Below are positions 4,283 to 4,875 of a stretch of DNA of 64,000 nt, piece after piece (positions within the stretch are counted from its first letter, which is position 1; each line of letters opens with the position of its first letter). The notes under the pieces are model-generated. The model saw only the letters and a program-made list of their open reading frames with translations. It was not told the origin of the DNA and made no database searches. Source of the DNA: Candidatus Anderseniibacteriota bacterium. GTDB taxonomy: Bacteria > Patescibacteriota > JAUYIX01. Where the stretch lies: NCBI GenBank assembly GCA_046350855.1, contig JAXLZM010000002.1:78103-142102 (forward strand), given 5' to 3'. A program made the translations under genes and the position numbers.

Positions 4283-4478
4283 TTTAAAATGATGGTACGG
4301 ACCATGCTGGTACGAGCCAGTCTTTAGATCACCGTGGAGCGCTAGTAGATTGTCAATTAACTGCAGCGAAAAGCGTGCAACGTCTTGTCGATGTCGCTTA
4401 CCTCGTGCGAATGCCCTCCAAGATTCCAGGAGATTGTCTAAAGAGATGATAGAATCAAAACTTACATGAGTAAAAGTA

Positions 4479-4512
4479 CTCTCTCTCTCTCTCTCTCTCT
4501 CTCTCTCTCTCT
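4479..4512. repeat. (CT)17 / (GA)17 perfect dinucleotide microsatellite
   Basis: Read directly: 'act' followed by ctctct…ctc from 4479 to 4512. It lies between the Avd start (TTG 4528, + strand) and the conserved RT N-terminus (− strand). It encodes (ER)n in the RT frame. Confidence 0.95.
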
Positions 4513-4527
4513 CGAAACGCGACCATT

Positions 4528-4875
4528 TTGCATCGGCTGCGAGAGGCGTACCTGGCCTGGTCCGCGGTTCTGCCGCACATAGCTAAGTCTGCTCGGTACG
4601 GGATCGGTGCCCGCATCGATAATCGTTTTTTGAGTCTGTTGGAGCGTACGCATGTGACGTATTTTAGCGCACGTGCACTGCGCGGCGAAAAAATTGCAAA
4701 CTGCATTGTTGAACTCGATACGCTCAAGTTTTTACTAGCAACGGCCTGGGAGGCTAAGCATATTTCTAATCACCAGTACGAGTTAGTGGCACTAAAACTA
4801 GAAGAAGTAGGTAAGATGTTTGGCGGTTGGAAAAAATCGCTCGCCACTAGTAATAAAAACCGCACGCTTTGGTAG
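4528..4875 (+). CDS. avd: Avd-like accessory variability determinant (four-helix-bundle / 23S rRNA IVS-protein family)
   Basis: 115 aa, basic. C-terminal 'LDTLKFLLATAWEAKHISNHQYELVALKLEEVGKMFGGWKKSL' follows the Avd/IVS four-helix-bundle pattern (compare Avd '…HQVETAQVLIAEVGRILGSWI…'). TTG start. Encoded divergently from RT, between RT and TR. Confidence 0.75.
   Translation: MHRLREAYLAWSAVLPHIAKSARYGIGARIDNRFLSLLERTHVTYFSARALRGEKIANCIVELDTLKFLLATAWEAKHISNHQYELVALKLEEVGKMFGGWKKSLATSNKNRTLW

Follow-up and report, generated by a model that had tools for sequence, protein, structure and literature searches.

Organization of the diversity-generating retroelement

A complete diversity-generating retroelement (DGR) of the candidate phyla radiation (CPR) type is encoded in the 64-kb stretch of Candidatus Andersenbacteria DNA analysed here (hereafter the window). 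Its avd and reverse transcriptase (RT) genes are divergently oriented, on the plus and minus strands respectively, and their 5′ coding regions meet across a long dinucleotide repeat, changes in whose length may switch both genes together. The element consists of the following parts:

1438–3441, plus strand: DGR target gene, 667 amino acids, without a Pfam match, tail to tail with the RT gene
3297–3435, plus strand: variable repeat (VR) at the 3′ end of the target gene, one arm of a repeat pair with the template repeat (TR)
3443–4582, minus strand: RT open reading frame (ORF; PF00078), with its stop codon at 3445–3443 and conserved RT sequence from approximately 4470 ('THVSFDSIISLDNLL...')
4528–4875, plus strand: avd as callable from TTG 4528, 115 amino acids, matching PF22296 (bAvd; E=1.5e-13)
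4887–5024, minus strand: TR, the other arm of the repeat pair, its sense strand being that of RT

The RT frame contains the PF00078 domain (E=1.2e-22) and its best relative of solved structure is the Bordetella bRT (8ub7; E=1.5e-48 over residues 5–297), with bRT residues 9–288 aligning to the window RT frame. A protein search with the RT retrieved thousands of CPR DGR-type homologues, while the only 100% match is a 279 amino acid protein (P0001) of a Candidatus Andersenbacteria metagenome-assembled genome (MAG). All seventeen substitutions between the TR and VR occur at TR adenines (17/17), alongside a single 1-nt indel. A DGR-clade RT, an adenine-specific TR/VR pair and an Avd adjoining the RT are thus all present in the window, where the RT frame (342 codons) and avd are both intact.

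Comparison of the VR (3355–3441) with the TR (4887–4965) places one extra C in the VR near position 3360, by which the last ~28 target codons fall outside the TR-encoded frame ('..GSWLQRRRCRARQLVGSRPSDRVPSPQVAL*' versus '..QIVFRLRK*', the latter of which would terminate at TAG 3430–3432). This could represent a real indel beside CAAC or a consensus artefact of mixed VR reads. A single base separates the stop codons of the target (3439–3441) and RT (3443–3445, minus strand) genes, such that the VR abuts the 3′ end of the RT gene.

The dinucleotide tract and start codons at the avd-RT junction

An initial annotation of the window had drawn attention to a perfect (CT)17 tract in the 5′ region of the RT gene, and had proposed that it switches the RT on and off by slippage. 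The tract is indeed 100% pure and is the sole dinucleotide run of at least six units within the window. It and the start and stop codons around it are as follows, where n denotes the number of CT units:

4479–4513, both strands: C(TC)17, or (GA)17G on the RT strand, 35 nt (TRF: 17.5 copies, 100% match)
4583–4585, minus strand: TAG closing the RT frame upstream
4280–4282, minus strand: GTG start of the public annotation (279 amino acid product), lying past the conserved N-terminal 63 residues
4576–4578, minus strand: GTG antisense of the Avd P-H-I His codon (CAC here), at the conserved RT-strand start position, in the RT frame at n=16 and 19
4531–4533, minus strand: ATG ('MQNGRVS(RE)n'), sharing its frame with GTG 4578, in the RT frame at n=16 and 19
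4524–4526, minus strand: ATG ('MVAFR(ER)n'), in the RT frame at n=18 and 15, unconserved in relatives
4466–4468, plus strand: ATG antisense of the RT His CAT, reading 'MSKST(LS)n SRNATILHRLREAYLAW' into Avd at n=16 and 19

A frame scan agrees with the initial annotation that the RT frame, open from TAG 4585–4583 to position 3443, has no ATG, GTG or TTG ahead of GTG 4282, and that this GTG lies past the conserved N-terminal domain. The 63 residues it excludes align to bRT 8ub7 residues 9–71, and the annotated 279 amino acid RT ('reverse transcriptase/maturase family protein') is therefore a truncated call. No near-cognate start is found in the window between the tract and the conserved RT residues. 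On the opposite strand, the 3′ end of the tract falls 14 nt short of the avd TTG 4528 (16 nt had been given initially), while protein-level conservation of Avd ('N-A-T-I-L') reaches upstream of this TTG to the tract (4516–4527). Taken from ATG 4466 to GTG 4578, the putative coding regions of avd and RT would share 113 nt in head-to-head orientation (4466–4578), with the tract in the middle.

Tract alleles of n=14 to 20 were constructed in silico and scored for the RT and Avd frames. At the assembled n=17, as well as at n=14 and 20, the RT has no canonical start and ATG 4466 is not connected to Avd. The n=16 and n=19 alleles bring the RT into frame with both GTG 4578 and ATG 4533 ('..MQNGRVS(RE)n..') and Avd with ATG 4466 ('MSKST(LS)n SRNATILHRLRE..'), while at n=18 and 15 the RT is joined to ATG 4526 and other unconserved ATGs, and Avd is again not joined to ATG 4466. 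Both neighbours of the assembled allele, n=16 and n=18, hence yield a start-initiated full-length RT and the n=17 phase alone yields none, with a single slippage step separating the assembled allele from the both-in-frame phase.

The initial annotation had rightly placed ATG 4524–4526 outside the RT frame at n=17 and had reasoned that gain of one CT unit, or loss of two, would fuse it to the RT. This holds in silico at n=18 and 15, but ATG 4526 is unconserved and the conserved start is reached by losing one unit. Overlooked were the third-frame starts ATG 4533–4531 and GTG 4578–4576 and the plus-strand ATG 4466–4468. The proposed RT switch is supported in part, the RT being without a canonical start at n=17 and acquiring one when a single unit is gained or lost. 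However, the tract also lies in the avd reading frame on the other strand, so that any switch would be bidirectional, and approximately a quarter of related loci have proximal starts for both genes.

Conservation of the repeat in related DGRs

Eighty genome and eighty metagenome loci of related CPR DGRs were fetched, in essentially all of which avd is divergent from and directly upstream of RT. A simple repeat occupies 158 of the 162 readable avd-RT gaps (~97%), at a position homologous to that of the window tract, such that the occurrence of a repeat at the same place in orthologous DGRs, put forward as a check in the initial annotation, is borne out. On the RT strand, the repeats are distributed as follows:

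Poly-G: 95 loci, G7–13 and one G18, with lengths clustering at 9–10
(GA)n: 57 loci, 9–43 nt
(GT)n: 4 loci, 17–25 nt
(CT)n: 2 loci, 17 and 23 nt

When the remaining 683 kb of the related loci is searched by the same repeat definition, 90 repeats are recovered (0.13 per kb), all of 12 nt or less, and approximately 0.014 repeats would be expected per gap. The position of the repeat is kept while its motif turns over between G, GA, GT and CT. Compound tracts are observed in the gaps of loci L014 and L105, where GA runs, (GA)11 and (GA)n, lead into G9 and G11, respectively, and these tracts look like intermediates between the two main types. At the repeat position of two further loci (L006, 1–70; L073, ~620–820) there are N gaps and extended runs of C, and in one of them the RT 5′ end is partly duplicated, which suggests that the homopolymer broke the assembly or scaffolding there.

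The wide occurrence of the repeat bears on the possibility that the length of the window tract is a short-read assembly error, or that the window DGR is decaying, its RT start lost and its target frameshifted. The window derives from a MAG and is represented by a single contig, the VR indel displaces the last ~28 target codons from the TR-encoded frame, and the tract, with its 35 nt, ranks near the top of the length range of its type (median near 21 nt). The repeat slot is, however, clade-wide, and the feature is therefore no artefact of the window, even if n is off by one unit. Furthermore, the RT and avd frames are intact, the TR/VR substitutions are exclusively at TR adenines, and a start-less RT is common, being found in 12/41 GA-type loci and also in a diversifying population described below. 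We therefore regard assembly error or decay as an improbable explanation of the window locus.

Length variation among near-identical sequences

The length of the repeat differs between otherwise identical contigs of relatives, and the repeat in the avd-RT gap is hypermutable in nature, as the initial annotation had anticipated. Loci L047 and L154 share 3,262 bp without a mismatch and are told apart only by G10 versus G9; the pair L103 and L104, likewise free of mismatches over 2,212 bp, differs by G9 versus G10 alone. Among proteins clustered at 90% identity, (ER)2, (ER)3 and (ER)4 alleles occur, together with all three upstream frames.

One population (P0135) comprises ten contigs from ten samples of one project, with identical RT genes and flanks, in which the (GA)n tract measures 19, 21, 25 (four contigs), 27 (three contigs) and 31 nt. 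In seven of these contigs, compared over ~2.3 kb, variation besides that of the tract is confined to 32 columns inside the VR, and all TR/VR differences in the population lie at TR adenines (110/110), which indicates that this DGR is active. The tract and the VR are thus the only two hypervariable features of this population. In another (P0156/P0158), no VR was found within the fetched flanks. Alleles within populations show a 6-nt periodicity (15/21/27; 19/25/31 and 21/27), which is suggestive, although the alleles are few and non-independent.

Coding up to the tract and availability of start codons

Start codons were tallied across the 127 non-redundant loci to which the repeat-bearing gaps collapse. 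For the RT gene, the two main repeat types are divided as follows:

GA type (41 loci): canonical RT start after the tract in 15, in-frame start only through the tract in 14, none in 12 (the window included)
Poly-G type (81 loci): canonical RT start after the tract in 54, in-frame start only through the tract in 13, none in 14

At least one of the two genes has no proximal canonical start in 94/127 loci, and start-less loci differ from start-bearing relatives by point changes (e.g. AATGCGG versus AAGGCGG). Conservation of Avd extends up to the tract in both types ('N-A-[ST]-I-L-x-R-I-K-E-G-Y' in the GA type; 'LLPLLEK.K.AYLLW' in the poly-G type), codon changes near the tract are synonymous or conservative (TCG/TCC/ACC/ACG; ATT/ATC/ATA), and most loci contain no start codon between the tract and this conserved stretch.

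In a diverged poly-G sub-clade (L035, L079, L106, L141, L158 and L159), the RT frame 'GGGYSW[ST]L.Y..IIS' runs directly out of the G run. None of these loci has a canonical start, and all share a conserved out-of-frame ATG over the Trp codon (TCATGG). The start-less state of this group is stable across species and as such is not simple decay.

Many database RTs of 60–65% identity open with 'M..RIEALS(RE)n..H.Y..IIS' or 'MR.NIHPNQISLFD..(ER)n'. The 'RIEAL' and 'NIHPNQISLFD' peptides were considered as proof of an upstream RT start and rejected, as they are the antisense of the avd N-terminus in three frames; 'KYPSLI', 'NIPL*' and 'QISLFD' likewise represent one conserved nucleotide sequence in three frames relative to RT. 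The likeness of the 'MVAFR' and 'RIEAL-(ER)n' readings to database N-termini has the same origin and does not reflect a protein motif. Gene callers extend the RT to whichever start the current tract length brings into frame. Scattered truncated or extended RT N-terminal calls are observed in related clusters, where in identical DNA the avd start differs or avd is not called at all.

Putative antisense start codons and coupled reading frames

The conserved RT His codon past the tract, situated 9–18 nt after it in GA-type loci, is CAT in 104/106 loci, compared to 56% CAT at other His codons of the same RT genes (p=3e-24). The free base of this codon is thereby fixed such that the avd strand reads ATG. 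This fixation is site-specific, as neighbouring two-fold-degenerate sites vary (e.g. the Tyr two codons on, T27/C53), and loci without the RT His still bear CATATG or CATG palindromes at the site. The reciprocal pattern is found in avd, where the His codon of the P-H-I motif is CAT in 36/37 GA-type loci, against a background of 52%, so that the RT strand carries an ATG ~66 nt upstream of the tract. Only the window itself departs from this pattern, its CAC giving GTG 4578–4576. A further constrained site lies inside the RT coding region, where the Asp/Asn codon before I-I-S (window 4452–4446) has T as its third base in 78/79 loci, so that the RT strand always reads TATCAT or TATTAT there, a good -10-like hexamer; the window copy was recovered in a promoter scan, with TTTACT 17 nt upstream.

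Each of the two conserved ATG or GTG triplets is exactly complementary to a codon that the other gene reads in frame. It follows that the ORFs of avd and RT must be either in frame together or out of frame together. Nine loci have both genes in frame and 28 have both out of frame, with no mixed cases, and all nine in-frame overlaps are open. The start-to-start overlap ranges from 91 to 128 nt across loci. Near-identical pairs (L154/L047, L103/L104, L160/L158 and L107/L012) flip Avd in or out of frame by the repeat alone, and in the complete genome CP066687.1 (L087; G10, in frame) NCBI annotates Avd as read across the poly-C tract in this same frame. In-frame GA-type alleles are furthermore shorter (median 17, maximum 23 nt) than out-of-frame alleles (median 23, up to 43 nt; p=0.015), with all tracts above 23 nt being out of frame, which is what translation of in-frame tracts would predict.

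A putative bidirectional slippage switch

These patterns suggest that the tract probably, if by a modest degree, acts as a bidirectional translational switch, in which its phase would control avd and RT together. The 5′ coding ends of the two genes would overlap head to head with the repeat in the middle, Avd starting at ATG 4466–4468 (antisense of the RT CAT) and the RT at GTG 4578–4576 (antisense of the P-H-I His codon; ATG in relatives), and both ORFs would meet these conserved starts at the same tract lengths only. Slipped-strand mispairing in 2-nt steps would cycle the locus through three phases. In the n=16/19 phase, Avd and RT would both be start-initiated and full length, with the tract translated as (Leu-Ser)n and (Arg-Glu)n, respectively. 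In the n=18/15 phase the RT would be joined to unconserved ATGs only, and in the n=17/14/20 phase neither gene would be in frame, with Avd produced at best from the internal TTG 4528. The predicted outcome is a heritable and reversible contingency switch, or at least a rheostat, on both proteins for mutagenic retrohoming. Some properties of contingency loci are recognizable here: the pure repeat is far longer than the threshold for instability and rare elsewhere, and unit changes shift the reading frame in silico; in relatives, length is also polymorphic. The broader proposal, that CPR DGRs in general carry such a built-in switch, by which one slippage event toggles both mutator proteins, is advanced more tentatively, and we would place it slightly short of an even chance.

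Several observations weigh against a switch of this kind. In-frame alleles are not enriched, at 24% of the GA type and 26% of the poly-G type versus 33% by chance. None of the ten P0135 contigs is in the both-in-frame phase despite diversification of the VR, and distinct VRs occur even on contigs that share the 25-nt allele (four in all). Both genes have a proximal canonical start in 33/127 loci, where the repeat need not be coding. The purine-rich strand is the RT strand in 152/158 loci, a bias that a pure length switch does not predict. Tract length was constant within two sets of six assemblies (P0006 and P0071), one with a short (GA)4-5 tract and one with a G10 tract, while a further population has a 21-nt tract in 12/13 contigs and 15 nt in the remaining one. 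Differences of 1 nt in homopolymers between short-read assemblies may be error and call for caution, those of 2–16 nt in dinucleotide tracts and of G10 versus G18 being more robust, and exact-protein look-ups with the window Avd and RT retrieved no second contig of the species. To account for the P0135 pattern, switching may be fast, a minority of the population may be ON, initiation may be leaky or non-canonical, or slippage may act at the transcript level.

Enrichment of in-frame alleles had been considered as a sign of selection to stay ON and was rejected, none being found. Stop-restart coupling of an upstream ORF into avd in the out-of-frame phases was rejected likewise, since stop positions are scattered and show no conserved arrangement. 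A promoter-spacer switch of the hif/porA type, with -35/-10 spacing near 17 nt, was rejected for GA tracts, given their range of 9–43 nt and a promoter and terminator scan around the window tract at chance level (two found versus 1.2 expected); this rejection is limited to GA tracts, and the poly-G type (G8–12) could still fit.

The strand bias speaks in favour of a non-coding cis element that is strand-specific and lies in a very short bidirectional control region, with length drift tolerated as a by-product of sequence instability. It would then provide a purine leader or Shine-Dalgarno-like standby site for RT and a pyrimidine leader for avd, initiation occurring at proximal starts, including ATT, ATC and CTG. 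Such an element would be in keeping with the apparently random reading frames, with VR diversification in populations carrying out-of-frame alleles, and with loci in which the tract ends 1–6 nt (GA) or 10–22 nt (poly-G) before a clean RT ATG (class A). Sub-clades stably without a canonical RT start also suggest unusual initiation ('RRIEF.H' with a conserved ATT; 'YSWSL'). It leaves unexplained, however, the near-invariant CAT/ATG pairs on both sides of the tract, the conservation of start-less Avd sequence up to it and the turnover of its motif at a fixed position. The range of GA tract lengths (9–43 nt) fits neither a fixed spacer nor a Shine-Dalgarno distance, the window RT has no near-cognate start past the tract and ahead of its conserved residues, and Rfam 15 covariance models over 3300–5400, on both strands, gave no match at E<=1. 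On this evidence a cis element is unlikely, although it is the alternative to which we give the most weight.

Active diversification despite out-of-frame consensus alleles and the lack of selection for in-frame genomic alleles are also compatible with non-heritable frame correction, in which RNA-polymerase slippage or ribosomal frameshifting would give low, stochastic amounts of Avd and RT product at any tract length. The tracts are long enough to slip (G9–13 and GA of at least five units), and transcriptional slippage at homopolymers rescues frameshifted genes in endosymbionts and insertion sequence (IS) elements. Such slippage is, however, established for A/T runs rather than G runs or GA dinucleotides, and the shorter tracts of in-frame alleles suggest that the genomic phase matters. 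We attach little probability to frame correction of this kind.

The bidirectional switch, which we favour, would have wider consequences. DGRs are especially abundant in CPR bacteria and related small-genome organisms. Were the switch to operate, diversification would be toggled stochastically and heritably within populations, coupling two classic mechanisms of evolvability: a hypermutable switch would be placed over a hypermutator, giving reversible population-level control of the timing of protein diversification. It would also account for the truncated, extended or missing N-termini in many CPR DGR RT and avd annotations. Tract phase could further mark the state of a DGR in metagenomes, and the tract and VR, ~1.2 kb apart, are close enough for linkage on single long reads. 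In a full-text literature search, DGRs were nowhere connected to simple repeats or to phase variation at avd/RT, Paul et al. 2017 lying outside this negative, and the large DGR survey of Wu et al. 2018 (PMC5758913) makes no mention of a repeat there.

Elsewhere in the window, a plus-strand ORF at 5618–8272 encodes an 884 amino acid SufB-like protein with an apparent intein-like insert ('..YLEG/CLPGDEEV ... FAVHN/CTAPRR..'), as judged from its translation alone.

Comparison with known systems

The Bordetella phage BPP-1 element (mtd-avd-TR-brt), in which the genes are co-oriented, is the prototype DGR. The window RT aligns to its bRT (E=1.5e-48), Avd matches PF22296 and TR/VR differences are adenine-specific in both. 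In the CPR clade, by contrast, avd and RT are divergent and the TR lies upstream of RT, across the antisense avd, and we know of no repeat described at the avd-brt junction of BPP-1, nor is one mentioned in the DGR surveys consulted.

In Neisseria, (CTCTT)n repeats in the leader-peptide coding region of opa genes bring about translational phase variation, as do poly-G tracts (G8–G13) inside ORFs of Campylobacter jejuni. The DGR repeat resembles these in being pure, long and located a few codons after the putative start, with unit changes that shift the frame, and, as among contingency genes, alleles of all three phases are found among close DGR relatives. It differs in that a single repeat, situated in the antisense overlap of two divergent ORFs, shifts both, and in that the genes presumed to be controlled encode a targeted-mutator machinery rather than surface antigens, in CPR hosts.

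A single dinucleotide repeat between two divergent genes, with co-regulation of both, is also found in Haemophilus influenzae, in which (TA)n in the overlapping divergent promoters of hifA-hifB acts through -35/-10 spacing. Co-regulation in the DGR is putative, and its GA tracts (9–43 nt) are too variable for a promoter spacer, while the codon evidence points to translation through the tract.

General mutators may themselves be switchable, with tandem-repeat or prophage-mediated on/off switching of mutL and mutS. The switch proposed here would similarly place a reversible genetic change over a mutation-generating system, as a second-order control of evolvability. Unlike mutL and mutS switching, which alters genome-wide rates, DGR mutagenesis is confined to one VR of ~140 bp. 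The class of mechanism would be classic repeat-mediated phase variation, set apart by its proposed location in the antisense overlap of two ORFs, its attachment to the Avd/RT machinery of a DGR and the conservation of the repeat across a large CPR clade.

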